64,000 nt of DNA from Vicinamibacterales bacterium (GCA_965217045.1 OZ244228.1:507914-571913), one strand, 5' to 3'. Counted from the stretch's first letter, positions 1,800 through 27,172 are shown. Notes: a model not told the origin generated them from the letters alone. Numbers and translations: made by a program.

Positions 1800-2155
1800 G
1801 AATGGGGGTCCCATTTCACGTGGCCACAAAGGTCCCTTTTCTAGTTGCCATTTCCACCTCAGGTGGAAGCGATGGCGAAAGGGAGCAGGCTCACGGGAGT
1901 GGCCGAACGGCCTATCACCCCGGAGATGAGCAGGAATGCCGGATGTCATCACATGCACAAGCGAAGGGGACGACCCGAGCGGTCGCCGTCGCCAGGGCGT
2001 CAACAGGCCTGACGACGCACCGGCCGGCCGGCTCAAGGGTGCGAGCCTGGTGCCAGGGCTCGCGAGACCCGTCCGCTGGTCGTGACCGGGAAGCCCGTGC
2101 GCGAGCCGCATGATTCCACTGGAGAGCCCGGTGCCGGAAATCGGCCCGCCGGGTT
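1800..2155 (+). ncRNA. Fragment of an apparently ORF-less group II intron ending in the first part of domain V (outer intron, 5' end lost)
   Basis: GAGAGCCCGGTGCCGGAAATCGGCCCGCCGGGTT at 2122-2155 is a domain V with the AGC triad and GAAA loop, interrupted at 2155/2156. No RT-like ORF precedes it. Confidence 0.6.
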
Positions 2156-2773
2156 GTGTGTCCAGCCAAGGCTGGCCTGTTCAGCGGGAGACAGCCCCGC
2201 CGGGGCAAGAATCAGGAGCCCCGTAGCTTGGATAGCAGGGAGGAGGGAAACCAAATTCCTGAAGCCTATCGACAGGGTCTCCCTTGGGGAGATTGCGAGT
2301 CATCGGGCCGTAACGTGAAGTGAACGCGGAGGTGGCCTCGAAAGTGTATTCCGAAGGCCGAGCCTGCAACCTGAAGGCGAAGGCAGCATGGGCGGTCGAA
2401 ACCTGATTGACGCGGCTGACCCACTTCGGCGGGGTGGTAGCGACAGCACGATGACAAGGACAGGCTGAGCAACTGGAGAAGCCCTCCTCGCCCCGGCGCG
2501 AAATCGCCGGAGCAAGGTAGGCTCTATAACCGGCAACACCGGGAAGTGAGCCGAAGGCGAGAGGGTGGCGGAGGGGCGTGTAGTAGCGTTGAGGCGGTGT
2601 AACTCCCGCGGAGCAAAGGCGCCCTGCTGTTGAACAGTTCTCCGACAACAAGGGAGGCAAGGACGGGATGACAAAGCCGTCCATTGGTTTGCAGGACCTG
2701 CGACGGAGAATATATCTCAAGGCGAAGGCTGACCAGAAATGGCGCTTCTGGGGGCTGTACGTTCATGTATGTA

Positions 2774-4070
2774 AGGCCACTGGCGGCAATTAACTTGCTA
2801 TCTTCTGGGTTTCGTAGTCTATTTCGGTTGCATGCAGCGCAACGTGGAATTGGAAGCCACCATCGTCGCGAAGTACGCGGTGGTCTCGCCCGTGTTGGAT
2901 GAGCGCAGTCGCCGCCGGTGGGCGGCCACCGAGTCTTTGTTCATCGGCTATGGCGGGGACGCGCTGGTCTCGTCGGCCACGGGTCTGGCCCGGGAGACGA
3001 TCCGGAAGGGTCGCCGGGAGATCTCGCAAGGCCAAACGCCGACAGACCGGGTACGACGTCCGGGCGCCGGGCGGCCCCGTCTCGAACAGAGCCAGCCCGG
3101 TCTGCTGGCCGCACTCGAAGCGCTGGTGGACCCGCTGACGCGCGGAGACCCGACCTCGCCGCTACGCTGGACAGGCAAGAGTCGGGCGAAGCTGGCCGCG
3201 GCGCTGACACAACAGGGGTGGCGAGTGAGTTCGACCACCGTCGGCCGGATGCTGCATCAACTGGGCTACCGGCTGCAATCGCCCCGCAAGCGCCAGGAGG
3301 GAGCGAGCCACCCGGACCGTAACGCGCAGTTCGAGCACATCAACGCGACCGCGGACGCGTTTCTGGCCGAGGGGCGGCCGGTGATCTCGGTCGACACGAA
3401 GAAGAAAGAGCTGGTCGGAAACTTCAAGAACGGCGGGCGGGAATGGCAGCCGAAGGGCACGCCGCCGGCGGTGTTGGTCCATGATTTCCCAACCGACGCC
3501 GAGGGCAAGGCGATTCCGTACGGCGTCTACGACATGGCGCGCAACGAAGCCTGGGTGAGCGTGGGATGGGACCACGACACACCGACGTTCGCGGTGGCGT
3601 CGATTCGCCACTGGTGGCGCCAGATGGGCTGCGGCGCCTACCCCGACGCCACCGCCCTGTTCGTCACGGCCGATGCGGGCGGGAGCAACGGGTATCGGTC
3701 TCGCGCCTGGAAGCATGAGCTTCAACAGTTGGCCGACGAGACCGGACTGACCATCCAGGTGAGTCATTTTCCACCCGGCACCAGCAAGTGGAACAAGATC
3801 GAACACCGGCTCTTCTGTCACATCACGGCGAACTGGCGCGGCACCCCGCTGACGACCTATGAGACTATCGTCGACCGCATCGGGAACACCCGGACGGCGA
3901 CCGGGCTCCGGGTCCTGGCCGAACTCGACGCCGGGCAGTATCCCACGGGCGTTACGGTGACCAAGGAACAGATGGACGCAATCGCGCTGGTCCGCGATAC
4001 GTTCCATGGGGAATGGAATTACAAACTGTTACCCCGATGAAGTTGATAACTTTATATCGATCACTGTCCT
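2774..4070 (+). mobile_element. ISAzo13-family IS inside intron A RT
   Basis: Encloses an intact transposase; imperfect IRs AGGCCACTG.. and ..CACTGTCCT; adjacent RT sequence deleted. Confidence 0.75.
2832..4040 (+). CDS. ISAzo13-family transposase (intact, 402 aa)
   Basis: ISVDTKKKELVGNFKN, PYGVYD, TADAGGSNG, TSKWNKIEHRLF and GEWNY motifs. Confidence 0.92.
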   Translation: MQRNVELEATIVAKYAVVSPVLDERSRRRWAATESLFIGYGGDALVSSATGLARETIRKGRREISQGQTPTDRVRRPGAGRPRLEQSQPGLLAALEALVDPLTRGDPTSPLRWTGKSRAKLAAALTQQGWRVSSTTVGRMLHQLGYRLQSPRKRQEGASHPDRNAQFEHINATADAFLAEGRPVISVDTKKKELVGNFKNGGREWQPKGTPPAVLVHDFPTDAEGKAIPYGVYDMARNEAWVSVGWDHDTPTFAVASIRHWWRQMGCGAYPDATALFVTADAGGSNGYRSRAWKHELQQLADETGLTIQVSHFPPGTSKWNKIEHRLFCHITANWRGTPLTTYETIVDRIGNTRTATGLRVLAELDAGQYPTGVTVTKEQMDAIALVRDTFHGEWNYKLLPR

Positions 4071-4413
4071 TACGGGTACCGGCCAAAACGCACGGCCCAT
4101 CGGGCGGTGCACCGGGTGACGACGGCGGTCGTAAAGAACAAGACCACGGTGATAGACGTGGACTTGGCGTCGTATTTCGATACGGTTCGACACGACATCC
4201 TGCTTGGAAAAGTGGCGATTCGGGTAGACGACGACGAAGTTTTACGGCTGTTGAAGCTCATCCTCAAGGCTGGAGGCAAGCGGGGCGTTCCCCAGGGTGG
4301 GGTTATTACTCCCCGAACGCAAAAGGCAACTTTCTGTTCGATCGGGTGATCACCGGCTGGCGAGACCGACCGGTACTTGATCTACGTCTCAAGAGGTAAT
4401 ATGTTTATGCCTC

Positions 4414-4746
4414 ATGGCGCGGGCCACCAAGGCCGACAAGGCGCGCTTGCTCAACGCCGCGTACCGCCTGCTCGGACAGCAGATGGAACGCGCCGAGGCG
4501 GCCCGGCAACTCGGTCGCGAGTGCGCGTTGTCGCGCCGGCAGGCCTACCGCTATCTTCAGGAAGCGGCCGGGCTGAGCGCTCCGCTGCCGGCGGTCGAGC
4601 CGACCGTCGCAGTCACCTTCAAGCTGCCGGTCAGCACCGTACGCGCAATCCGCGCATATGCCCGCCACAGCGGACTCTCCCTCGGACAAGTCGTCACCCA
4701 GGCGGTGACGGCGTTCCTGGACAACTTCCGTCAGCGACGTGGGTGA
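4414..4746 (+). CDS. Small putative DNA-binding protein (HTH-like N-terminus, ribbon-helix-helix-like C-terminus), LSR element orf1
   Basis: 110 aa; AEAARQL..LSRRQAYRYL and TFKLPVSTVRAIRAYA..SLGQVVTQAV patterns; overlaps the next ORF. Confidence 0.65.
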   Translation: MARATKADKARLLNAAYRLLGQQMERAEAARQLGRECALSRRQAYRYLQEAAGLSAPLPAVEPTVAVTFKLPVSTVRAIRAYARHSGLSLGQVVTQAVTAFLDNFRQRRG

Positions 4747-5041
4747 ACGACAACCACGAAGAGCTCCGCGGCAGGTGCAGCTCGATTGCACGTTCGATCG
4801 ACTTCGCGACAGCAAGATCGCCCAGGCGTACACGTTGTTGGTACCGGCCTGTATGCGTCCGGTTGCAGCCCACGGAATGGAGCGTCCACATGCAGATGGC
4901 GGCGATCTACACGCGCGTGTCCTCGAATCAGCAGCGCGAAGCGCACACGATCGCGAGCCAGACGGCGGCGCTGGTCGAATGGGCAGCGACGCTCGATCTG
5001 GAGGTGCCCCGGCAATGGGTCTTCGAAGACGAAGGCTATAG
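4739..5041 (+). CDS. Small hypothetical protein, LSR element orf2
   Basis: GTG start overlaps the orf1 stop; runs into the LSR start in another frame; true length uncertain. Confidence 0.4.
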   Translation: MGERQPRRAPRQVQLDCTFDRLRDSKIAQAYTLLVPACMRPVAAHGMERPHADGGDLHARVLESAARSAHDREPDGGAGRMGSDARSGGAPAMGLRRRRL

Positions 5042-6673
5042 CGGGGCGACGCTCGAACGGCCGGGATTGGAACAGGTGCGCGACCTGGCAGCCGCCGGCG
5101 ACATCCAGGTGGTGCTCGTGCACAGTCCGGACCGGCTGAGTCGGAAGTACGCCTACCAAGTCCTGTTGATCGAAGAGTTCGGACGTCACGGGGTCGAGAC
5201 CCGCTTCCTCAACGGCCCGTCGAACGCCACGGCCGAGGATCAGCTGCTGGTGTAGTTTCAGGGCATGATCGCCGAGTACGAACGCGCTCAGATCCTCGAA
5301 CGGTCGCGTCGTGGCAAGCGGCACCGCGCGCGAGCCGGCGAGATCAGTGTCCTGGGCGGCGCTCCCTATGGTTATCGCTACATTCGCAAGCGTGATGACC
5401 ACCCGGCGGCGTACGTCGTCATCGACGCCGAAGCGCGCGTTGTCCGCGACGTCTACGAGCACTACACCGTCACGGGCTGGAGCATCGCGGCGATCACCCG
5501 CTGGCTCAACGAGCAAGGTATGCCCACGCGGAAGGTCGGCACCCGTTGGGAACGCTCCACCGTATGGGCGATGCTGCGCAATCCGGCCTATCGCGGCACG
5601 GCGTGTTTCGGCAAGACGCGACGAGCCCAACGGCAGCGCGTGACGCGCCCACTACGGCTGCGTGGCGGCGCCGCCAGTCGCGACAGTGCGAACCACGAAC
5701 GGCCGCGCGAGGAATGGATCGAGATCCCGGTGCCGGCGATCGTGGACGAGTCGACCTTCGCGCGCGCACGAACTGCTGCACGAGAACAAGGTGCACGCCC
5801 GGCGGCGCACGATCGAACTGCACGAGAACGAGCCTCGTACAGGGGCTCGTGAGTTGCCAGAAATGTGGCTACGCGCTCTCGCGCGCGTCGGCCCGGTCGA
5901 GCGCCCGGAAGATTCACTACTACCGCTGCATCGGATCCGACGGATGGCGGCACCTCGGCGGCCCCCGGTGCGACACGCGCCCCGTGCGGCAGGACCTCTT
6001 GGACGAGGTCGTCTGGACCGAAGTGATACGGTTGCTTGAGGATCCGGCACTGATCCAACAGGAACTGGATCGCCGGCTGGCCGCCGCTCAGGCTGCTGAC
6101 CCTGCGAAGACCCGCACGCAGGCGGTGGAGCGGGACCTCACTCGAGTCGGGAAGAGCATGGAACGGCTGCTCACCGCCTACCAGGAGGATCTGCTGTCGC
6201 TCGAGCAGCTACGTGAGCGGATGCCGTTGCTGCGTCAACGTGAGCAGACGCTACGCTACGAGTTGAACGCTTTGGTCGAGCAGACTCGCGAGCGCGCCGC
6301 GCATCTGCGCTTGGCCGAGACCCTGTCGGCGTTTCTCACGCGCCTGCGCGCGACGGCCGAGACGCTCGACATCGTGGAGCGGCAGCGAATCGTGCGCCTC
6401 GTCGTCAAGGAGGTCCTCGTCAATGACGACAAGATCGTGATCCGCCACTGCATTCCCGTACCCTCGGGGCCACCGCCAACGAACGGTGGCGGACCGAACA
6501 ACGACGCCGACAACGCTGCGGACCCTCGAAGTTACCTTTTGCGTTCGGGGAGTAATTTCACCCTTGCTCAGCAATCTCTATCTCAACGAGGTGGACAAGA
6601 TGCTGGAGCGGGCGAAGGACGTCACCCGACAAGGACGCTACCACTACATCGAGTATGCTCGATTCGCCGATGA
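4890..6673 (+). pseudogene. Large serine recombinase (resolvase + recombinase + Zn-ribbon + coiled coil); in-frame TAG at 5253-5255 and indels at ~5770-5850
   Basis: AIYTRVSS catalytic motif, EDEGYSG, DRLSR, AEYERAQILERSRRGK, CQKCG..YYRC. The ORF reads through attR into host RT DNA. Confidence 0.9.
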
Positions 6674-6675
6674 CC

Positions 6676-7373
6676 GTGCGCCACGAAGGCGCAGAAGGGA
6701 GGCCGAGATGGCCGCCTAGCTGCAGCCATGCTGCACGAGGGATGAGGGTAGGCCCCTCGGAGCCGCCCGGCAGGGGGAGGCTCCAAACCGCCGTGCGCTG
6801 CTTCGGTCAAGAGCCGGGGTGGTAAGCGTCACGGAAACGGCGCGGCGCGACCGCGTCAGGTAGGGTGCAGGGAGACGAAGTGGATGAACCACCGGCAACG
6901 TGTCGAAAGCGTAGGGACGGTGTCGAAACCGGGGCGAGTCGTTAACCCGGGACGAGTCCAGTGGGAGCCTGCAGCTTGGCTGGGCGGCACCCGGCATAAA
7001 GGTGGCGTGACCCTGCACCAGGCCCTTGTGTGGAACGTGGGAACCTGTCGCCTCGATGTGAAGGGAGAAATCCAAGGGGCCGACCCCCAAGGATGAGAAG
7101 CCCGATGCGAGGCACAGGGGCGGAGCGACCCGTACGAGCGATGAAGTCGGGGAAACTCGATGGAGCAAAGGGGTCGCGTCATCCAGCGTGTCCCGACGGT
7201 CAACCGCGCGTGCGGGAGGAGCCGTCGAGCCACGCGAAGCCGTTCAGGCTGTTCGCCCATTGGCATCTGCTGGGGGTGACGCTGGCGGCTGGATGATGGG
7301 AGCTGTATGAGCGGAGACGTTCACGTACAGTTCTGCGAGCGCCCGGGGGTGAGATTCCCCCGGGCGACTCACC
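6676..7373 (+). mobile_element. Group II intron B, ORF-less deletion derivative, inserted 1 nt after the RT FADD codons
   Basis: GTGCG at 6676; domain V GAGCTGTATGAGCGGAGACGTTCACGTACAGTTC; ends ..GACTCACC. Removal restores TTC GCC GAT GAC C|TG (FADDL). Near-identical to 29753-29190 plus the 3' end of the full copy. Confidence 0.92.
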
Positions 7374-7840
7374 TGGTGATCCTGATCGACGGCTACCGCC
7401 GGTGGCGGTGGCTTGAGACGACCGTGTACAAGCGGCTTCTGGAGGAACTGGCCACACTCGACGTGGAACTCAATCGTGACAAGACGCGTCGCGTCGATCT
7501 CGCAAAGGGCGAGAGTTTCACCTTCCTTGGGTTCAGCATCCGCCGCGCCTGGACGCAGCGGGGCAAGTGGGGGGTTGCCTGTGTGCCGAAGATAGCGGCA
7601 CGCACCAAACTCCTGCGACGGCTCAAGGGGGTGATGCGACGACATTGCTCGCAACCGGTTGAAAGGGTCATTGCTCTCATCAACCCAATCCTGCGCGGAT
7701 GGACGAACTACTTCCGCATAGGACAATCGAGCCGATGTTTCAGTCACGTGAAGGACTGGGTCGAGAAGAAGGTACGGCGACACCTGATGCGACAGCGCGG
7801 GCGACTGGGGTTCGGCTGGAAGAGGTGGAGTAGGCAGAAG

Positions 7841-9624
7841 GTCTTCATTTAGCGGGTTCCGGGGCAGGTGTCAAAGTTTTGACTTGTACAAATTTCGGAA
7901 CTGTGGCATAACCTTGGCGTGAAGGTCGGGGACCGCAATTCGCACGAGAACCTGCAGGCCGAGGTCGAACGGCTCCGCACGGAGTTGACGCGGCGCGAGC
8001 GCGACACCAAGAACCAGCAACGCGAGAACGGTCGCCAGCAGCGTCAGATCGACGGCCTGCAAGGCCAGATCGAGCGTCAGAAGCGGGAGATCGAGCAACT
8101 GAGGGGGCAGTTGGCCGCCGCGCGCCGGGCGGGGTTCCGACAAGCCGCCCCCTTCGCCAAGGACCGACCGCAAGGACGCGGCCGGCGTCCCGGTCGACGG
8201 GCTGGTACGCAGTATGGTCGGAAGGCGTGCCGCCCGCGCCCGGCACGGGTTGACCAGACCCTGGAAGCGCCGGTGCCGACGGCGTGTCCCGACTGCGGCG
8301 GGTCGGTCGAAGTGACCCACGTGGCGTCGCAGTATCAGGAAGAAATCCCCGAAGTGCGCCCGGTCGTGCGCCGCTTCGACATCGAAGTGGGCCGCTGCTC
8401 ACAGTGTCGGCGGCGCGTGCAGGGCCGCCACGCGCTGCAGACCTCGGATGCGCTGGGAGCGGCCGGCGCGCAGCTCGGCCCCGGCGTCGTCGCGCTGGTC
8501 GTCGAGTTGCACACGGAGATGGGCGTACCGCTGGCGAAGGTCGCCCATGTGCTGCGGACCACGTTCGGCTTACACGTGACACCGGGCGGCCTCGCCCACC
8601 TGCTGCACCGCACGGCCCGCGACGCCGCGCCGACCTACACGGCGCTGTGCGAGCAGGTCCGCAACTCGCCCACGGTCACACCGGATGAAACCGGGTGGCG
8701 CGTCGGTGCCATCAGCCACTGGCTGTGGGCCTTCGTCACCCCGGAGACGACGGTCTACGCCATTTGCCCCGGCCGCGGGTTCGACGATGCCACCACGGTT
8801 CTGGGGGCCGACTTCGCCGGGGTGCTCGTGCGCGACGGGTGGGTGTCGTATCGTTGCTACCGCGAAGCGCTGCACCAATCCTGTCTGAATCACCTACTCC
8901 GACGATGCAAGGAACTGCAGGAAGATCATCCGCACAGTCTGTGGGCCGGGCAGGTGCAAGCGGTCTTGCAGACGGGCCTTGCCGTGCGTGACCGCTGCAA
9001 CGACGGCGAGCTGAGCGAGCACGGTCTGGCATCGATCCGCGGCCGACTCGTAGCCCGGCTCGGTCGGCTCATTGACGCACCGCCACCGCTGGACGACGCC
9101 GAGCGCTTTGCCCGGCATCTGGCCACCGAATTCGCTGCCGTGTTTCTCTTCTTGTGGGACCTGTCGATCGACGCCACCAACTGGCGCGCCGAACAGGCCA
9201 TCCGTCCCGCCGTCGTTATCCGAAAGGTCTGCGGTGGCAACCGCACCCGCCACGGCGCCGACAGCCAGCAGGTGCTGGCCAGCGTCGTGCGCACCGCCCG
9301 CCAACGCGACCTCGATCTACCTCCGCTGATCGCCACGATGTTGCGCGCCACCGGTCCCGTCGTCCCCGACGCCTTCGGGCTCCCCCCGCCGCCCGCCTGA
9401 GGGTGGGCGAGCATCGCTCCCTCGCGAGACGTGAAGATCGGCAACCCCGAGACGGTCGCTTCAACTGCGACCGACCCAGGCAGGTACCGTCACGCGCAGG
9501 GGTGAAGCACCAATAGAACCGATGCAGTTCACAGCTCCGTTGCCGTTCGGAACTTCAAGAGTCCCCAACCCATTTCTGCTATTTATGCCCGTATTTGTTG
9601 AGGAATCACCCGCTAAACGAATAC
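7841..9624 (+). mobile_element. IS66-family single-ORF element in the intron A RT C-terminus
   Basis: IRs GTCTTCATTTAGCGGGT / ACCCGCTAAACGAATAC; 8-bp target duplication GGCAGAAG at 7833-7840 and 9625-9632. Confidence 0.9.
7919..9400 (+). CDS. IS66-family transposase
   Basis: N-terminal coiled coil, CPDCGG/CSQC zinc finger, DETGW, VRDGW, TNWRAEQAIRPAV. Confidence 0.9.
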   Translation: MKVGDRNSHENLQAEVERLRTELTRRERDTKNQQRENGRQQRQIDGLQGQIERQKREIEQLRGQLAAARRAGFRQAAPFAKDRPQGRGRRPGRRAGTQYGRKACRPRPARVDQTLEAPVPTACPDCGGSVEVTHVASQYQEEIPEVRPVVRRFDIEVGRCSQCRRRVQGRHALQTSDALGAAGAQLGPGVVALVVELHTEMGVPLAKVAHVLRTTFGLHVTPGGLAHLLHRTARDAAPTYTALCEQVRNSPTVTPDETGWRVGAISHWLWAFVTPETTVYAICPGRGFDDATTVLGADFAGVLVRDGWVSYRCYREALHQSCLNHLLRRCKELQEDHPHSLWAGQVQAVLQTGLAVRDRCNDGELSEHGLASIRGRLVARLGRLIDAPPPLDDAERFARHLATEFAAVFLFLWDLSIDATNWRAEQAIRPAVVIRKVCGGNRTRHGADSQQVLASVVRTARQRDLDLPPLIATMLRATGPVVPDAFGLPPPPA

Positions 9625-9892
9625 GGCAGAAGCTATATGACCGACTCGGGCTGTTCTCCGAATACCGGGTCGTCTATCTGCCGAAAGCGCTCCCGGTTTG
9701 AACGGCCACATAACCCTTGAGACGAAGGCAACAGGAAAGCCCAGTGCCGGAAATCGGCATGCTGGGTTTGACGAGGCGGAGCTGGAAACGTGCCCACGGG
9801 AGCCGGACTGAGGCCCGGTGCCCACGGGAGCCGGCGAAAGCGCCGGAGGAGCCACCGGACCCTACCGACAGCGCGCCAGCTCTCGACCCTAC

Positions 9893-10010
9893 CGATGAGC
9901 GGCGACTGGAAACGGAGCCATGGCGAGGAGTGAGGCACCGGCATCAGCGAAAGCTGCCGGGAACAGCTACCCCCTACGCCTACCGCCACCGCGCCAGTCG
10001 TCGACTCTAC
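9893..10010 (+). ncRNA. Remainder of domain V and domain VI of the outer group II intron
   Basis: Matches the intron C 3' end at 26492-26608 (minus); ends ..CGACTCTAC and is followed by the same exon CCTGCTGACG. Confidence 0.85.
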
Positions 10011-10388
10011 CCTGCTGACGTCAGCCTCCCTGCACGACAGCTGCGGATTTCGCTGAAGTGGATCACCGATTCCGGGGATGTGGATCACGGATTTCGGTGA
10101 AGTGGAGCGCCCATCGGAGCGTAGCGACGTTCGTCGGTCAGTTGCCTCCCATCGGTGTCGTAGCGTCTGGTCGATATCCTACTCGTGCTGTCGTGTCAGT
10201 GAGCATCGATGAGGTTGCCTGTGGTTCCTGTGGGCGCCGCGTGCGGCGTCCAAGGTGCTGTGGGAAACGCGCTTTCGGCGACGGCGCAGTTGCCGCCGAG
10301 CGTATCGCGCGCGTTTTCCATGGCACCGCCAGGGTCCACAGGCTGTTCGCGCCCGGCGGGAGCGTCGGGCGTCTCGCGGACGTGATCG

Positions 10389-11147
10389 TCATGTCGTCTC
10401 CTTCCGGCGGTTGGCGGGTGCGTCGTGCGTGCGTCGCATCGAGCGGCCCTTGAGCTCGATGCGGTGCGCGTCGTGGAGCAGGCGGTCGCAGATGGCGTCG
10501 GCCTGGTTGGGGTCGCCGATGACGGCGTGCCAGTCGGTCACGGGCAGTTGGCTGGCGATGAGCGTCGAGGCGCGTTCGGCGCGGTCCTCGATCACCTCGA
10601 TGAGGTCTCGCCGCTCGGGGTCGCGCAGCGGCGCGAGCATCCAGTCGTCGATCGCGAGCAGGTCGAGCTTGGCCAGGCGGGCGAGCAGCCGGGTGTAGGA
10701 GCCGTCGCCGCGGCCGACGGCCAGCTCGTGCAGCAGGCGCGGCATGCGGACGTAGCGCGCGGCGAAGCTGCGGCGACACGCGCGTTCGACGAAGGCGCAG
10801 GCGATGAAGCTCTTGCCGATGCCGCACGGTCCCGTGACGATCACGTTGTGGCGCTCAGCGATCCACGCGCAGGCGCCGAGCGTGAGGATCTGCTGGCGAT
10901 TGAGCCGGCGCGAGTGGGTGAAGTCGACGGCCTCGAGCGTCGCCGGGTAGCGCAGCTTGGCCGTGCGGAGGCGCCGGTCGAGCTTGCGCTGCTCGCGGGC
11001 CGTCCACTCGGTGTCGACGAGCAGGCCGAGCCGCTCCTCGAAGCTGAGCGCGGCGGCCTGGTCGGTGTCGAGCTGCTTTTGGAAGGCGTCGGCCATCGCG
11101 CCGAGCTTCAGGGCGTTGAGCTTGTCGACGGTCTGTTCGATCAGCAT
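10389..11147 (-). CDS. istB: IS21 helper ATPase IstB
   Basis: GPCGIGKS Walker A, LLAIDDW, AICDRLLH. Confidence 0.93.
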   Translation of the reverse strand: MLIEQTVDKLNALKLGAMADAFQKQLDTDQAAALSFEERLGLLVDTEWTAREQRKLDRRLRTAKLRYPATLEAVDFTHSRRLNRQQILTLGACAWIAERHNVIVTGPCGIGKSFIACAFVERACRRSFAARYVRMPRLLHELAVGRGDGSYTRLLARLAKLDLLAIDDWMLAPLRDPERRDLIEVIEDRAERASTLIASQLPVTDWHAVIGDPNQADAICDRLLHDAHRIELKGRSMRRTHDAPANRRKETT

Positions 11148-12700
11148 CGGTCCTCCTCTGAGGTCGCGGCCGCGTAGTAGTTGGCGCCGCGGATGTTGGC
11201 GTGCATCGGTGTCGGGTTGGTCTCGGCCGGCGGCTCGAGGGGCAGCCGGTCCTGACCGGCGGCGAGGATGTTCTTGACGGTGTGGAAGCGGCACGAGCCG
11301 AGCGCCAGCGCGCGGGTGCTGGCGGCGTCGAGCCGGGCGTTGCCGTACTGGCGTCCCAGACGCATGATGCCTAACACGGTCCGATAGCCCTGCTCAGGGT
11401 GCGGGCGGCTGTGCAGGATCCGGGTGACGAGCCGAGCGGTCGCCGGTCCGACCGTCTCGGCCCAGCGGATGAGCCGCGACGGGGTCCACTCGGCATGTGC
11501 GCGGTGGGCGCTGGGCATGTGCTCGGCCACGGTGGACGGCTGTCGGTCGTAGCGCCGGCGGTGCGACGCCACGCGCTTGCCGCGATGGAAGATCTCGACC
11601 GTGTTCGTCGTGTGGCGGACCTCGACCTGCTCGCGGACGAGTTGGTACGGCACGCTGTAGACGTGGCGGTCGACCTCGACGTGGTAGTCGATGTTCACGC
11701 GGCACAGCTTCCAGTGGGCCAGGACGTAGCGGGTAGCCGGCAGGGGGCGTAGCGCCGGGCGGTCGAGCTGCTCATAGAGGGCGCGGCGGCTGACGCCCAG
11801 CTTCTTCATCGGGCGGTCGTTGAGCTCGTCGAGCAGGACGCGGATCGCCCGGTTCAGCGCGCCGAGCTCGAAGAAGGTCTGGTCGCGGAGCCGGGCCAGG
11901 ATCCACCGCTGGGCCACGAGTACGCTGGTCTCGACGACCGCCTTGTCGCGGGGCTTTCTGGGGCGCGCCGGGATGACGACGGCGCCGTAGTGGGCGGCCA
12001 GGTCCTCGTAGGTGCGGTTGACGTCGGGCTCGTAGCGGCAGGGGCGGGTGATGGCGCTCTTGAGCTGGTCGGGGACCCACAGCGTGGTGGCGCCCCCGCA
12101 GTACTCGACCATGTGGATGTGGGCGGTGACCCAGTCCGCCAGCTGCTGGGTCGCGGTCGCCTCGGCGTAGGTGAGGCTGCTGGCGCCGAGCGCGGCGACG
12201 AACAGCTCGACAGGCCGCAGCTCACCCGTGCGCCGGTCGACCAGAGTCGGCCGCTTGCCCGAGAAGTCGACGAAAGTCTTCTCGCCGGCGCGGTGCACCT
12301 GCCGCATCGACGGCCGCAGCCGCCGCGACCACTGCCGGTAGATCTCGCAGAATTGCGTGTAGCGGTAGCCGCCGGGATGGACCTGGAGGTACTCCTCCCA
12401 GAGCAGCTGCAGCGTGACCCCGTTGCGCTTGAGCTCGCGGTGGATGTGCGCGCAGTCGGGTCGGGCTCGGTTGGGCACTGGCGCCGGGCGGCGAAACAGC
12501 CGGGCCTCGAGCGCCGCGTCGTCCAGGTCGGCCGGCAGCGGCCAGCCCAGCCCGTACCGAGCCGCCCTCTGCAGATAGCGTGAAACCGAGCTCGGACCGA
12601 TGACGCAGGCTTGGGCTACCTCTCGGTGGGACAGGCCCTGTTCGTACCTGAGTCGTAGAATCTCCCGAATTTTCCTCACCAGAAGCCTCCGAGTCGGCAT
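11141..12700 (-). CDS. istA: IS21 transposase IstA
   Basis: HRAGEKTFVDFSG, VPDQLKS, PARPRKPRDKAVVE, SRPHPEQGYR. Confidence 0.95.
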   Translation of the reverse strand: MPTRRLLVRKIREILRLRYEQGLSHREVAQACVIGPSSVSRYLQRAARYGLGWPLPADLDDAALEARLFRRPAPVPNRARPDCAHIHRELKRNGVTLQLLWEEYLQVHPGGYRYTQFCEIYRQWSRRLRPSMRQVHRAGEKTFVDFSGKRPTLVDRRTGELRPVELFVAALGASSLTYAEATATQQLADWVTAHIHMVEYCGGATTLWVPDQLKSAITRPCRYEPDVNRTYEDLAAHYGAVVIPARPRKPRDKAVVETSVLVAQRWILARLRDQTFFELGALNRAIRVLLDELNDRPMKKLGVSRRALYEQLDRPALRPLPATRYVLAHWKLCRVNIDYHVEVDRHVYSVPYQLVREQVEVRHTTNTVEIFHRGKRVASHRRRYDRQPSTVAEHMPSAHRAHAEWTPSRLIRWAETVGPATARLVTRILHSRPHPEQGYRTVLGIMRLGRQYGNARLDAASTRALALGSCRFHTVKNILAAGQDRLPLEPPAETNPTPMHANIRGANYYAAATSEEDRC

Positions 12701-13507
12701 CGCTTCGCCCTCCGTTCAAAAGGCGAAGGATCCCGCGGTCAGGCTACCGATGAGCGCTCACGATCCCGGAAACTGGGTGATCCAGTTCGGCCGAAAGCGA
12801 TCCACTTCCGCCGAAATCGGTGATCCACTTCGACCGAAACAGGTGATCCACTTCCGCCGAAATCGGCGATCCACATCGTCCGAAATACGCAACAGCCAAG
12901 CCGCCATTCCGCTGGCGACCTTGTCGGCCGAGCGAACGACCAATCTGTATGACCTGATGGACGCCGCCTACGACGCGGAACCGATCCGCCAGCACAGCCG
13001 CTCACTCGGCCACGTCCCGTTGCTTGACACCAACCCCCGCCGCGACAAGGCGCTGGCGGAGGAATTGCGAACCGAAGCCCGGCGCCTGCAGCGTATCGGC
13101 TTTCAGCTTCCCGAGCAGGCTCGCTACAACGAGCGTACGGCGGGTGAGCGCGTCAATGGCCGACTCAAGGACGAGTTCGGCGGTCGCCATGTCCGGGTCC
13201 GGGGCGCCTCGAAAGTGATGTGCCACTGCATGTTCGGCGTGCTCGCACTCACCGCCGACCAGCTCGTGCGCCTCGTGACATAACCAGTGCACCGCCGGCA
13301 ACGCCCCTCGGCGCCCGACGGGCGTCAGTCACCCACGGGTGTCCCAACGCGCGGTCGAGAACACGTCGAAACATCCGACTTCTACCTCTGGCGTGCCGCC
13401 GGTTATCCCGACAAGATGTCCAGTCGGCGATCCAGGGCAATCGTGTTCACCAAGAGAGCTGAGGACTGCGCCCAGCCCCAATCCCCCGGGAGTTTTGCAA
13501 GCGGCTC

Positions 13508-23306: not shown

Positions 23307-23641
23307 AAACGATCGGGAGCGTCGATTTCACGGGGCAAGAGCGCGGTGGCTATTTCGGTGAACGTGAACGCAGATTCCGACGAACGTGAACGCCCGTCGG
23401 AGCGCAGCGACGTTCGTCAGTCAGTTTTCTCCCATCGGTGTCGTACGGGTCTTCGATATCCTACCCGTGGTGTTCGCGTTCGAGAGTACAGAAGAGAGTG
23501 CCTGTGGAGCGTGTGGGCGCCGTCTGCGGCGTCCAAACGATGTGGTAAACGCGCTGTCGATGACGACCCAGTTGCGCTGGGCGTGGCGCGCGCGTTTTCC
23601 ACGCCGTGCCACGATCCATAGGCCGGCTGCCGGTCGCGTGC

Positions 23642-24409
23642 TCATGTCGTCTCCTTTGTCTTCTTCGGGCGGTTGTCCGGCGCGTCGTGTGTCCGTCGCA
23701 TCGAGCGCCCCTTGAGCTCGATGCGGTGCGCGTCGTGGAGCAGGCGGTCGCAGATGGCGTCGGCCTGGTTGGGGTCGCCGATGACGGCGTGCCAGTCGGT
23801 CACGGGCAGTTGGCTGGCGATGAGCGTCGAGGCGCGTTCGGCGCGGTCCTCGATCACCTCGATGAGGTCTCGCCGCTCGGGGTCGCGCAGCGGCGCGAGC
23901 ATCCAGTCGTCGATCGCGAGCAGGTCGAGCTTGGCCAGGCGGGCGAGCAGCCGGGTGTAGGAGCCGTCGCCGCGGCCGACGGCCAGCTCGTGCAGCAGGC
24001 GCGGCATGCGGACGTAGCGCGCGGCGAAGCCGCGACGGCACGCCCGTTCGACGAGGGCGCACGAGAGGAAGCTTTTGCCGATGCCGGTTGGGCCGACCAG
24101 GATCAAGTTGTGGCGTTCGGCGATCCACGCGCAGGTTCCCAGCGTGAGGACCTGCGGGCGGTTGAGTCGCCGGGGGTGGGTGAAGTCGACGGCCTCGAGC
24201 GTCGCCGCGTAGCGGAGCCTGGCCGTGCGGAGGCGCCGCTCGAGCTTGCGCTGCTCGCGGGCCGTCCACTCGGTGTCGACGAGCAGGCCGAAACGGTCCT
24301 CGAAGCTGAGCCCGGCGGCCTCGGCGGTCTTGAGCTGTTGCTGGAAGGCGTCGGCCATCGCGCCGAGCTTCATGGCGTTGAGCTTGTCGAGCGTCTGTTC
24401 GGTCAGCAT
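23642..24409 (-). CDS. istB: IS21 helper ATPase IstB
   Basis: GPTGIGKS, LLAIDDW; paralog of 10389-11147. Confidence 0.92.
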   Translation of the reverse strand: MLTEQTLDKLNAMKLGAMADAFQQQLKTAEAAGLSFEDRFGLLVDTEWTAREQRKLERRLRTARLRYAATLEAVDFTHPRRLNRPQVLTLGTCAWIAERHNLILVGPTGIGKSFLSCALVERACRRGFAARYVRMPRLLHELAVGRGDGSYTRLLARLAKLDLLAIDDWMLAPLRDPERRDLIEVIEDRAERASTLIASQLPVTDWHAVIGDPNQADAICDRLLHDAHRIELKGRSMRRTHDAPDNRPKKTKETT

Positions 24410-25849
24410 CGGTCCTCCGTGGTCGCGGCGTAGTAGTCGGCGCCGCGGATATTGGCGTGCGTCGGCGGTTCGAGCGGCAGTCGCTCCTGGCCGGCGGTGA
24501 GGATGTTCCTGACGGTGTGGAAGCGGCACGAGCCGAGCGCCAGCGCGCGGGCACTCGCCGCCTCGAGCCGGCTGTTTCCGTAACGCCGCCCCAGCTGCAT
24601 GATTCCCAGACAGGCGCGATAGCCCTGCTCGGGGTGCGGGCGGCTCTGCAGGATCCGGGTGACGAGCTGTCCGGTCGCCGGTCCAGCCTTCTCGGCCCAG
24701 CGGATGAGCCGCGACGGGGTCCACTCGGCATGCGCGCGGTGGGCGCTGGGCATGTGCTCGGCCACGGTGGACGGCTGACGGTCGTAGCGCCGCCGGTGCG
24801 ATGCCACGCGCTTGTCGCGATGGAAGATCTCGACGGTGTGGGTGGTGTAGCGGACCTCGACCTGCTCGCGGACCAGTTGGTACGGGACGCTGTAGACGTG
24901 CCGGTCAACCTCGACGTGGTAGTCGATGTTGACGCGGCACAGCTTCCAGTGGGCCAGGACGTAGCGGGCGGTGGGCAGGGGCCGCAGCGCCGGGCGGTCG
25001 AGCTGCTCGTAGAGGGCGCGGCGGCTGACGCCGAGCTTCTTCATTGGCCGGTCGTTGAGTTCGTCGAGCCCGACGCGGATCGCCCGATTCAGCGCGCCGA
25101 GTTCGAAGAAGGTCTGGTCGCGGAGCCGGGCCAGGATCCATCTCTGGGCCACGAGCACACCGCTTTCGACGACCGCCTTGTCGCGTGGCTTTCTGGGGCG
25201 CGCCGGGACGACGACGGCGCCGTAGTGGGCGGCCAGGTCCTCGTAGCTGCGGTTGACGTCGGGCTCGTAGCGGCAGGGGCGGGTGATGGCGCTCTTGAGC
25301 TGGTCGGGGACCCACAGCGTGGTGGCGCCCCCGAAGTACTCCACCATGTGGAGGTGGGCGTTGACCCAGTCAGCCAGCTGCTGGGTCGCGGTCGCCTCGG
25401 CGTAAGTGAGGCTGCTGGCGCCCAGCACGGCGACGAACAGCTCGACAGGCCGCAGTTCACCCGTGCGCCGGTCGACCAGCGTCGGCCGCTTGCCCGAGAA
25501 GTCGATGAAGGTCTTCTCGCCGACGCGGTGCACTTGGCGCATCGACGGCCGCAGCCGCCGCGCCCACTGCCGGTAGATCTCGCAGAACTGCGTATAGCGG
25601 TAGCCGCTCTGATGGACCTGCGCGTACTCCTCCCAGAGCAGCTGCAGGGTGACGCCATTGCGCTTGAGCTCGCGGTGGATGTACGCGCAGTCGGGCCGGG
25701 CCCGGTCGCGCACCGGCGCGGGGCGAGGAAATAGACGCGCCTCGAGCGCCGCGTCGTCCAACTCGGCCGGCAACGGCCAGCCGAGCCCGCACTGTGCCGT
25801 CCTCCGCAGATACAGCGTGACCGTGCCCAGGCCGATTGCGCAGACCTGG
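24403..25849 (-). pseudogene. istA: IS21 transposase IstA, N-terminus interrupted at 25850
   Basis: Paralog of 11141-12700; N-terminal HTH cut by the IS end. Confidence 0.88.
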
Positions 25850-26491
25850 GAGCCGCTTGCAAAACTCCCGGGGGATTGGGGTGGGCGCAGTCCTCAGCTC
25901 TCTTGGTGAACACGATTTGCCCTGGATCGTGGACTGGATATCTTGTCGGGAGAACCGGCGGCACGCCGGGAGGTAGAAGTCGGATGTTTCGACGTGTTCT
26001 CGACCGCGCGTTGGGACACCCGTGGGTGACTGACGCCCGTCGGGCGCCTCAGGGCGTTGCCGGCGGTGCACTGGTTATGTCACGAGGCGCACGAGCTGGT
26101 CGGCGGTGAGTGCGAGCACGCCGAACATGCAGTGGCACATTATTTTCGAGGCGCCACAGACCCGGACATGGCGACCGCCGAACTCGTCCTTGAGTCGGCC
26201 ATTGACGCGCTCACCCGCCGTACGCTCGTTGTAGCGAGCCTGCTCGGGAAGCTGAAAGCGATACGCTGCAGGCGCCGGGCTTCGGTTCGCAATTCCTCCG
26301 CCAACGCCTTGTCGCGGCGGGGGTTGGTGTCAATCAACGGGACGTGGCCGAGTGAGCGGCTGTGCTGGCGGATCGGTTCCGCGTCGTAGGCGGCGTCCAT
26401 CAGGTCATACAGATTGGTCGTTCGCTCGGCCGACAAGGTCGCCAGCGGAATGGCGGCTTGGCTGTCGTGCAGGGAGGCGGACGTCAGCAGG
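25850..26491 (-). mobile_element. 3' part of IS5/IS1182-like element, copy 2 (transposase C-terminus ~26074-26491)
   Basis: Near-identical to 10011-10041 + 12897-13507 in inverted orientation, without the IS21 insertion. Confidence 0.85.
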
Positions 26492-27172
26492 GTAGAGTCG
26501 ACGACTGGCGCGGTGGCGGTAGGCGTAGGGGGTAGCTGTTCCCGGCAGCTTTCGCTGATGCCGGTGCCTCACTCCTCGCCATGGCTCCGTTTCCAGTCGC
26601 CGCTCATCGAACCGGACGGGCGGATTTCCCGCATCCGGCTCTCGGGCGAGATCATGCCTTCGCCCACGGAAAGCTCGCCGTTCGCGGAACAAGGCGGGTG
26701 AGCCCGTACTCTTGCCAGAGTCGCTCATCCGGGAAGCGCACGTATTTCCCTAACTGCACCTTGTGCTTGCGACAGAGCCACTGGCGCAGCCGCCGCGTCG
26801 CGTGCCGGTCAATCGCAGCGTAGGCCGGGCTGACCTGCCCCAGGGTGAAGTAGTTCGCCCAACCGGTCAACAGCCGATTGATGCGCGCTACCACCACCGG
26901 CGGCGATAGGGGCCCGTTACGCCGCGTAGTCAGTTCGCTCACGCGACGGCAGATGCTCTGGACGTTCGACTGACTCGGCCGCGTGCCGATATAGGCGCGC
27001 CCCGTGTCCCGCCGGTAGTTGCGCCCAATCCGGTCGCCGAGGAACGTCATCGACTCCTCCGGCAACCGGCAGCAGCGGGTCTTCTCGGCGTTCATCGGCA
27101 GCTTCAGACGCTCCAGCAGGGTTTCGACCGCGGCCAGCATCACCGCTGCCGGCGCTCGGCCGAGCACCGCAA

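Follow-up and report, generated by a model that had tools for sequence, protein, structure and literature searches.

A widespread bacterial group II intron lineage that very probably homes to domain V of other group II introns

In a 64,000-nt stretch of DNA from a Vicinamibacterales bacterium (GCA_965217045.1, OZ244228.1:507914-571913; called the window in its full length) we found a group II intron, A, that is inserted into the catalytic domain V (DV) of another group II intron. From the copies of A, their flanks and their relatives in other genomes we consider it highly probable that A is a mobile bacterial intron without endonuclease (En) domain, that its natural homing site is the DNA for the DV 3' strand of other group II introns, and that it belongs to a widespread lineage of intron parasites. 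That A targets the DV of other introns had been proposed in a first-pass annotation of the window, and this proposal is now borne out by 21 of 21 copies in the genome and by a strict DV hairpin in 31 of 64 family flanks. For the homing of one intron into another, one protein-coding target is known: the YADD codons of reverse transcriptases (RT). Intron A would add to this a lineage that homes to the catalytic hairpin of a ribozyme, the most conserved RNA element of the group II class.

Intron A and its host introns in one genome

Intron A starts with GUGUG at position 2156, directly after GGGTT (2151-2155) in the 3' arm of a DV, exactly as the first-pass annotation had noted. This DV is of the X type and is present without its last nucleotide (2125-2155, plus strand, AGCCCGGUGCCGGAAAUCGGCCCGCCGGGUU; the stretch 2122-2155 reads GAG-AGCCCGGUGCCGGAAAUCGGCCCGCCGGGUU). 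It folds at -19.4 kcal/mol into a hairpin with the AGC triad at its foot, an 8-bp lower helix, a 2-nt bulge in the 3' strand and a 4-bp upper helix, and its 3' strand bears IBS1 (CGGGUU, 2150-2155) together with the IBS2 region. The hairpin belongs to a 3'-ward part of host intron X (1856-2155, plus strand), which is 100% identical over 300 nt to other X copies and is cut upstream by an ISAzo13-family element. At its other end, intron A terminates at 9892 with ...CTCGACCCTAC (= ..CUCGACCCUAC, CCCUAC; short form ..CGACCCUAC), and from 9893 on the sequence CGATGAGCGG... (= CGAUGAGCGG...) brings the C that closes a DV, followed by a linker and by a domain VI (D6) ending at 10010. Both boundaries were set to the single base by comparing filled and empty sites within the same genome, for which the assembly (6.45 Mb, 12 contigs) was searched. 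The empty X site reads GCCGGGTT|CGGAGAG, and the filled sites read GCCGGGTT|GTGTG and CCCTAC|CGGAGAG; the comparison shows A to be inserted behind the last U of DV, directly before the closing C.

The termini of A have the form GUGYG...AY (GUGUG at 2156, CCCUAC at 9892). Its first segment in the window (2156-2775, plus strand, A positions 1-620) comprises GUGUG, domains I-III and the start of the ORF for the intron-encoded protein (IEP; ATG at 2668). This segment is 99.8% identical to a full copy at C2:543822-546514 and is matched at 2182-2318 by RF02003 (group-II-D1D4-4; 119 bits, E = 4e-26). The last segment (9625-9892, plus strand) contains, by fold, A's own DV (9738-9768, ..UGGGUU) with AGC triad and 2-nt bulge and with U 9769 as the next nucleotide, followed by A's own long D6, in which a bulged A at 9886 sits 7-8 nt from the 3' end, and by the 3' end itself. 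RF00029 makes no call on this DV and D6, probably because the D6 is about 120 nt long. The ribozyme amounts to 1,986 nt and the full-length genomic copy to 2,693 nt. After removal of a nested intron, C, the IEP is an RT/maturase of 431 aa (RVT_1 107 bits, GIIM 65 bits); it has no En domain and stops 23 aa past GIIM. The one indication of splicing or retrohoming activity is the 99-100% identity of the 21 A copies.

All 21 of the A 5' ends found in the genome stand in a DV context. Thirteen of them follow the DV of X, five the DV of a second host intron, O, and two A's own DV, while the remaining one is interrupted by an IS; the 3' continuations are X-type in 11 copies and O-type in nine. Empty DVs are present as well, 18 of X (next to the 13 filled ones), three of O (filled in 5 of 8) and 22 of A. 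The remaining copy, at C2:483064, was considered as an ectopic, non-DV insertion and rejected, since a 33-copy IS ends 3 nt upstream of its junction and ..GTT|GTGTG remains.

Host intron X is complete and ORF-less (867 nt, 5' GUGCG, 41 copies), and its uninterrupted DV and D6 match RF00029 at 45 bits, above threshold (locus L121). X was also considered as a remnant that had lost its 5' part and become fused to an IS, an idea that was discarded, since the copy used as query (C12:852xxx) is interrupted around X position 55 by a further insert and 41 copies keep GUGCG. Host intron O encodes an RT. Its part in the window behind A (9893-10010, plus strand) consists of the last DV nucleotide (C), the linker and a domain VI ending ..GUCGACUCUAC, and an uninterrupted O-type DV with D6, thus an empty homing site, is located at 26492-26643 on the minus strand (RF00029 42.6 bits, above threshold), where GUCCGGUU|CGAUGAG is contiguous. 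At C1:316490-320083 and C2:543822-546514 the flanks of A rejoin to the empty X sequence, which makes both loci twintrons.

Two features of X itself were seen along the way. Head-to-tail X arrays with a period of 867 nt occur at C2:3180218-3182818 and also at C1:404897 and C1:503112, with the junction ..CUCGACUCUAC|GUGCGCC..; the upstream "exon" is here X's own 3' end, which is mismatched to the normal X IBS (UUAUUCC). The G run with which the X D6 starts (CGGAGAGCGGGG..AGGAAACG) varies from 6 to about 17 G among the copies (e.g., C6:12521, C10:309117, C2:372985).

The homing site of X is conserved and lies 16 nt inside the end of a multicopy 1.7-kb IS. The 13 filled X copies share identical flanks over at least 60 nt, and a SNP comparison of the X+IS units did not separate filled from empty copies, so that a part of these 13 may have been multiplied by transposition of the X-carrying IS and not by separate homing. 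Pushed to its limit, this would mean that the DV position goes back to one or a few accidental insertions that were passively amplified with their host, be it X on the IS or O, and that A has no DV specificity at all. We regard this as very improbable. Already in this genome three distinct DV types are occupied, and the X lariat would be unable to carry A, because X needs an intact DV for its own splicing. The guide sequences and the hosts in other phyla, described below, speak against it as well.

Guide sequences and the domain V strand

A stem of GCCU (2362-2365) and AGGC (2375-2378) presents the loop GCAACCUGA, in which AACCUG (2368-2373, plus strand) pairs with CGGGUU including one G-U. 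The first-pass annotation had described this pairing, which we confirmed in the sequence, and had read the loop as EBS1, a reading that is upheld by covariation with the last 6-7 exon nucleotides. Loops AACCGU, AUCCGU, AACCGG and AACCGA are found with the exons ACGGUU, ACGGAU, CCGGUU and UCGGUU, respectively, and the loops GCACAA and GGGUCU with UUGUGC and AGACCC. The covariation extends to retargeted lineages, in which GAUCAU faces AUGAUC and CGUCGUG faces CACGACG. For a count we took seven EBS1 pairs plus EBS3 in 43 distinct EBS/exon combinations and compared them with 500 shuffles. Of the cells, 89% were paired versus 66% in the shuffles, and none of the 500 shuffles came as high; cells with a double change numbered 79 versus 21. 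Sliding the partner by 1-3 columns lowered the paired fraction to 29-52%. On the basis of this covariation over 43 distinct combinations, the loop at 2368-2373 is EBS1.

The EBS2 loop (AAAGUGUAUU, 2341-2350, plus strand; stem 2334-2340/2351-2359) covaries with exon positions -13 to -9, as seen in the relatives with the combinations GUGAG/UUCAC, GUGCG/CGCAC and ACAAU/GUUGU. In A itself, EBS2 is shorter and makes a poor match to both X and O. EBS3, assigned to G2437 (plus strand), pairs with the first 3'-exon nucleotide; in the family, EBS3 and the +1 base are combined as G:C 29 times, A:U 15 times, C:G three times and U:A once, with one clade excepted. Taken together, these guide pairings reach along the DV 3' strand from its bulge down to its foot and include the closing base. 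The EBS1 of A makes an internal U-C mismatch with the O target CCGGUU, although 5 of 8 O DVs are filled. Because of this mismatch and of the poor EBS2 pairing, pairing alone does not fully explain the choice of targets here.

The covariation shows that EBS2 pairs with about -13 to -9 of the DV, EBS1 with the last 6-7 nt of its 3' strand (consensus ACGGUU, here CGGGUU) and EBS3 with its closing C. Given the positions of these three pairings, reverse splicing would take place between the last two DV nucleotides (..GGUU|C). Since the IEP is without En domain, cDNA priming from the strands of the replication fork is expected, a route that is established for RmInt1-type and IIC introns. The DV 3' strand should be functionally constrained in every group II intron, which has been shown in part, so that one EBS1 would fit most host introns. 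This would offer A a perpetual homing site that is harmless to the cell, together with a wide host range. The IBS sequences sit in a stable hairpin that needs to be opened for homing and for splicing, a point that speaks against this reading. The family may provide a natural system for studying how an intron RNP invades such a structure.

The insertion of A would split the catalytic hairpin of its host, which could then splice only from RNA already freed of A. Ordered splicing with the inner intron first, as the first-pass annotation had suggested, may reasonably be expected from twintron biology and from the split DV. Thus, obligatory inner-first splicing in bacteria is predicted; for the window copy the matter is moot, because this copy is dead.

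The family across genomes and related systems

A search with A's RT against one genome per species gave 316 relatives, of which the best 80 (65-89% RT identity) were examined. All of these 80 start with GUGYGUCCAG, and the 3' end ..CGACCCUAC is kept in all of them. They yielded 64 non-redundant members with readable 5' flanks, A included. Our strict test called a DV when the flank had an xGC foot, a lower helix with 7 or more of its 8 pairs and an upper hairpin, and ended exactly at the junction. It was preferred to a fixed template of 34 nt and to two tests based on RNAfold, by which DVs were called too rarely or overlooked. A strict DV hairpin was detected upstream in 31 of the 64 members, as compared to a background of 0.13% (628 of 477,759 positions in the same loci, taken as controls), and about seven further flanks are degenerate or partial DVs. 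This flank survey of the RT family, which the first-pass annotation had suggested as a check, hence shows DVs to be enriched. Because all 21 genome copies stand in a DV context and 31 of 64 members pass the strict test, a chance association of the A family with DV is excluded.

The 3' flanks of the DV-inserted relatives consist of a C or U, then a linker and then the host D6. Upstream we detected host D1-D4 of the Rfam classes D1D4-2, -3, -4, -6 and -7, at distances that suit ORF-less as well as ORF-containing hosts. The DV-homers come from at least 10 phyla, so that the broad host range anticipated in the first-pass annotation is indeed found, and a DV target would explain how one guide sequence reaches five structural classes in so many phyla. 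The same arrangement is present on the finished plasmids pBb323S2b of Bradyrhizobium barranii, pBPHY02 of Paraburkholderia phymatum STM815 and pSBC2-3 of Caballeronia sp. SBC2, the latter with an intact ltrA in the host intron. Intact examples for experiments are thus at hand in cultured Caballeronia sp. SBC2, P. phymatum STM815 and Bradyrhizobium. It is at this level that passive amplification of an accidental insertion fails: dozens of unrelated host DVs from five Rfam classes are occupied in other phyla, and EBS1 tracks the variants of the host DV (ACGGAU/AUCCGU, UCGGUU/AACCGA, CGGGUU/AACCUG).

The hairpin directly adjoins the intron in about half of the relatives, and circularly permuted group II introns do exist (PMC8637638). 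One could therefore ask whether the hairpin is a part of the A-family element itself, as a 5' leader or through a permuted domain order, with no separate host involved. This is the least credible of the alternatives that we weighed. Empty DV sites run straight into the host D6, D1-D4 of another class are present upstream and a host D6 downstream, and the sequence of the hairpin is specific to the host and not to the family. Moreover, about 25 relatives have no hairpin at the 5' flank and yet possess EBS-matched exons. We therefore continue with insertion of A into the DV of separate host introns. DV-homers are present in every subclade of the RT tree and the other targets form tip clades, and for this reason DV homing looks ancestral in the family. 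The relative in Bacillus mycoides (50% RT identity) is inserted outside a DV, which suggests that the DV habit is confined to the sampled clade above about 65% identity.

Among the relatives with other targets, a sublineage from one uncultured proteobacterium MAG (L088-L099), together with L085, occupies a palindromic repeat, UUGUCCACGACG|GGGACCCGUCGUGGACA, in at least 11 copies; its EBS1 is CGUCGUG and its EBS3 is unmatched to the +1 G. Another sublineage (L081, L082 and L087, Pseudomonadales MAG) targets a perfect hairpin that is not a DV, AUUCCUGC-UUGC-GCAGGAAU|, and sits at its 3' foot, where EBS1 AUUCCUG matches the site and EBS3 is C against a +1 G. A member in a Desulfobaccales MAG (L049) has a non-DV 5' flank that matches its EBS1 (AUGAUC/GAUCAU) and a typical host D6 on its 3' side, a flank chimera like that of the window. 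On the B. barranii plasmid pBb323S2b (L125) an A-family 3' end abuts at position 4934 GUGUGUCCAGG, the start of another copy, in an arrangement that represents a second insertion, tandem or truncated.

The nearest known systems are the YADD-homing "B-like" introns M.a.I5 of Methanosarcina acetivorans, UA.I3, P.l.I2 and B.th.I3 (PMC2504315, summarized in PMC4424553). Like them, A is without endonuclease, has its IBS1 and IBS2 in a functionally frozen sequence of another retroelement, and makes twintrons and nests that are then reshuffled by homologous recombination. The difference lies in the target, which is the protein-coding stretch of RT active-site codons for the YADD-homers and the catalytic RNA hairpin of a ribozyme for A. 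The lineages are also distinct: A's RT is 30% identical to that of the window's YADD-homer, and the RNAs belong to RF02003 (A) and RF01999 (YADD-homer). A member of the YADD-homer lineage, intron C, even resides inside A at 6676-7373.

Copertino and Hallick reportedly described in 1991 a twintron in the chloroplast psbF gene of Euglena gracilis, in which an internal group II intron lies in the DV of the outer one. Here too the inner group II intron interrupts the outer DV and must leave first; this is, however, a single organellar case of degenerate introns, with no mobile RT-encoding lineage, no evidence for DV homing and no EBS/IBS covariation across hosts. Nesting of one bacterial group II intron in another, as seen with A, is known from the cyanobacterial twintrons of Thermosynechococcus elongatus (PMC2882425) and Trichodesmium (PMC4649490), with sequential splicing shown for the latter, whose inner intron lies in domain I of the host (PMC4649490). 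These are single-genome cases, in contrast to the A family with its cross-phylum distribution and its one homing site in DV.

Class C (IIC) introns insert after terminator or attC hairpins (PMC4424553), and they share with A the missing En domain and the position of the insert at a DNA hairpin's 3' foot. For IIC introns it is the structure of the hairpin that is recognized, with a short IBS1 downstream and without EBS2, whereas in the A family, which is of another RNA class, EBS1 (6-7 nt) and EBS2 pair with the 3' strand of the hairpin itself, and retargeted relatives insert at hairpin-less sites. In a search of the full-text literature we found no published description of a bacterial DV-homing lineage; older intron papers or the Zimmerly database may mention one. 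Annotation pipelines that locate intron ends by DV will miss or mis-bound both partners, and one such DV-based pipeline sets twintrons aside (PMC4028801).

Self-insertion and the window copy

Within the family, EBS1 pairs on average at 5.5 of 6 positions with the member's own targets and at 5.0 of 6 with the host DVs of other members (77% at 5/6 or better), versus 3.3 of 6 with the member's own DV and 3.4 of 6 with the DVs of other members (7.7% of the EBS1/family-DV combinations at 5/6 or better). The family DVs read ..GCGUU, ..ACGUU or ..GGGUU just above the AGC triad, where the hosts have ..CGGUU. In terms of predicted pairing, self-avoidance through IBS1 mismatch in the own DVs is hence shown at the family level, and A has lost this escape. 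In A, EBS1 is AACCUG, as against AACCGG in the nearest relatives (L041, L112). The A version suits both X, with its kin-type CGGGUU, and A's own DV; with the latter it pairs 6/6, two pairs being G-U. The first-pass annotation had noticed that A's own DV (TGGGTT|T) differs at +1 and had suspected self-avoidance there. The sequence is as described, but the suspected effect does not hold, since EBS3 G2437, the partner of C at +1, is still able to form a wobble pair with the U behind A's own DV, since EBS1 finds all six partners, and since two 5' junctions of A in A's own DV (C10:346745 and C10:349318) are present.

These self-insertions are seen as 5' junctions only; junctions of the type A-end|A-D6, which should accompany them, occur nowhere in the genome. 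In the tandem array at C10:342835-355978 (L123), two units A(1-2582) are followed by a full A and then by the D6 of X, and the upstream units stop at the GGGUU of A's DV. A possible reason for the missing junctions is that the tandem D6 repeats of 111 nt have collapsed, either in the cell or on assembly.

One may see in the A family, speculatively, a hyperparasite of group II introns that spans phyla and is engaged in an arms race over the sequence of DV. Its members would be immune through a compensated change in the base pairs just above the AGC triad, by which complementarity to the family EBS1 is lost, and A would have broken this truce when AACCGG became AACCUG, which opened kin-type DVs to it and began its self-invasion. 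We offer this scenario tentatively and give it somewhat less than an even chance. If it is true, DV-homers would be copy-number brakes on other introns, and the variation of bacterial intron DV sequences would partly be an escape from them. The present data suggest that DV variation can be shaped by conflict between introns.

When we mapped the full copy C2:543822-546514 onto the window, 2156-9892 proved to be one colinear, interrupted copy of A. This copy is a dead, recombinant relic, whose ORF is destroyed and which carries four inserts, counting the nested intron C. The first is an ISAzo13-family IS in the RT ORF (2776-4068, plus strand; DDE_Tnp_ISAZ013 464 bits in Pfam, ORF 2832-4040), at which A positions 621-915 were lost according to the colinearity map. 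It is followed by the second segment of A (4069-4304, plus strand, positions 916-1151, 100% identical to the full copy) and by a 2.25-kb serine-recombinase element in the RT ORF (4305-6555, plus strand; Pfam Resolvase and Zn_ribbon_recom), placed between A positions 1151 and 1153. The third segment (6556-7840, plus strand, positions 1153-2446, 99.2% identical to the full copy) contains intron C, and an IS66-family insertion (7841-9624, plus strand; Pfam DDE_Tnp_IS66) then separates it from the last one, with A positions 2439-2446 duplicated at both ends of the IS in the overlap of the A map.

Intron C itself, on the plus strand, is a group II intron without ORF (RF01999 at 6744-6861, RF00029 at 7298-7373), nested in A's RT ORF just past the YADD-type codons (FADD|LVILIDG); its excision in silico gives the 431-aa RT. 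It is present in 21 of 21 A copies, and an A without C does not occur in this genome. There are two ways to account for this: A and C retrohome together as a composite, A[C], or every copy has been invaded by C.

The first-pass annotation had let the interrupted DV resume at 9893. A closing C, a linker and a D6 are indeed found there, but they belong to a different host. On the 5' side stands the X-type DV, which would normally run on into CGGAGAGCGGGGGG, and the 3' side is O-type, with 99.3% identity to the uninterrupted O copy of the minus strand (26609-26461). The flanks are therefore halves of two different host DVs and not of one, and a removal of A from the window would leave a hybrid with X-type 5' and O-type 3' DV/D6. 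The same pairing of an X-type 5' with an O-type 3' flank is found at C2:709563-715682. Homologous recombination between dispersed A copies is probably the simplest cause, and such reshuffling of nested introns has been described for Methanosarcina (PMC4424553); the chimera may also stem from a misassembly across the repeat.

These two loci with flanks of two host types, the 21 near-identical A copies in the genome and the C10 array without the expected 3' junctions raise the question whether the DV junctions as such arose by homologous recombination between conserved DVs or by misassembly across repeats, and not by reverse splicing. We judge this even less probable than passive amplification. 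The junctions lie exactly at GUGUG and ..CUAC in every copy, and the same is true of other assemblies, finished plasmids among them; recombination accounts for the chimeric pairing of flanks, not for the junctions. Reverse splicing into DV is hence retained as the origin of the junctions, with recombination as the probable cause of the chimeric flanks. Behind the chimeric flank, the 3' exon of the plus-strand O is interrupted by a 2.85-kb rve/Mu-type transposase element (10042-12891), and an 88%-identical copy of this element (23373-25850) adjoins the minus-strand O copy.
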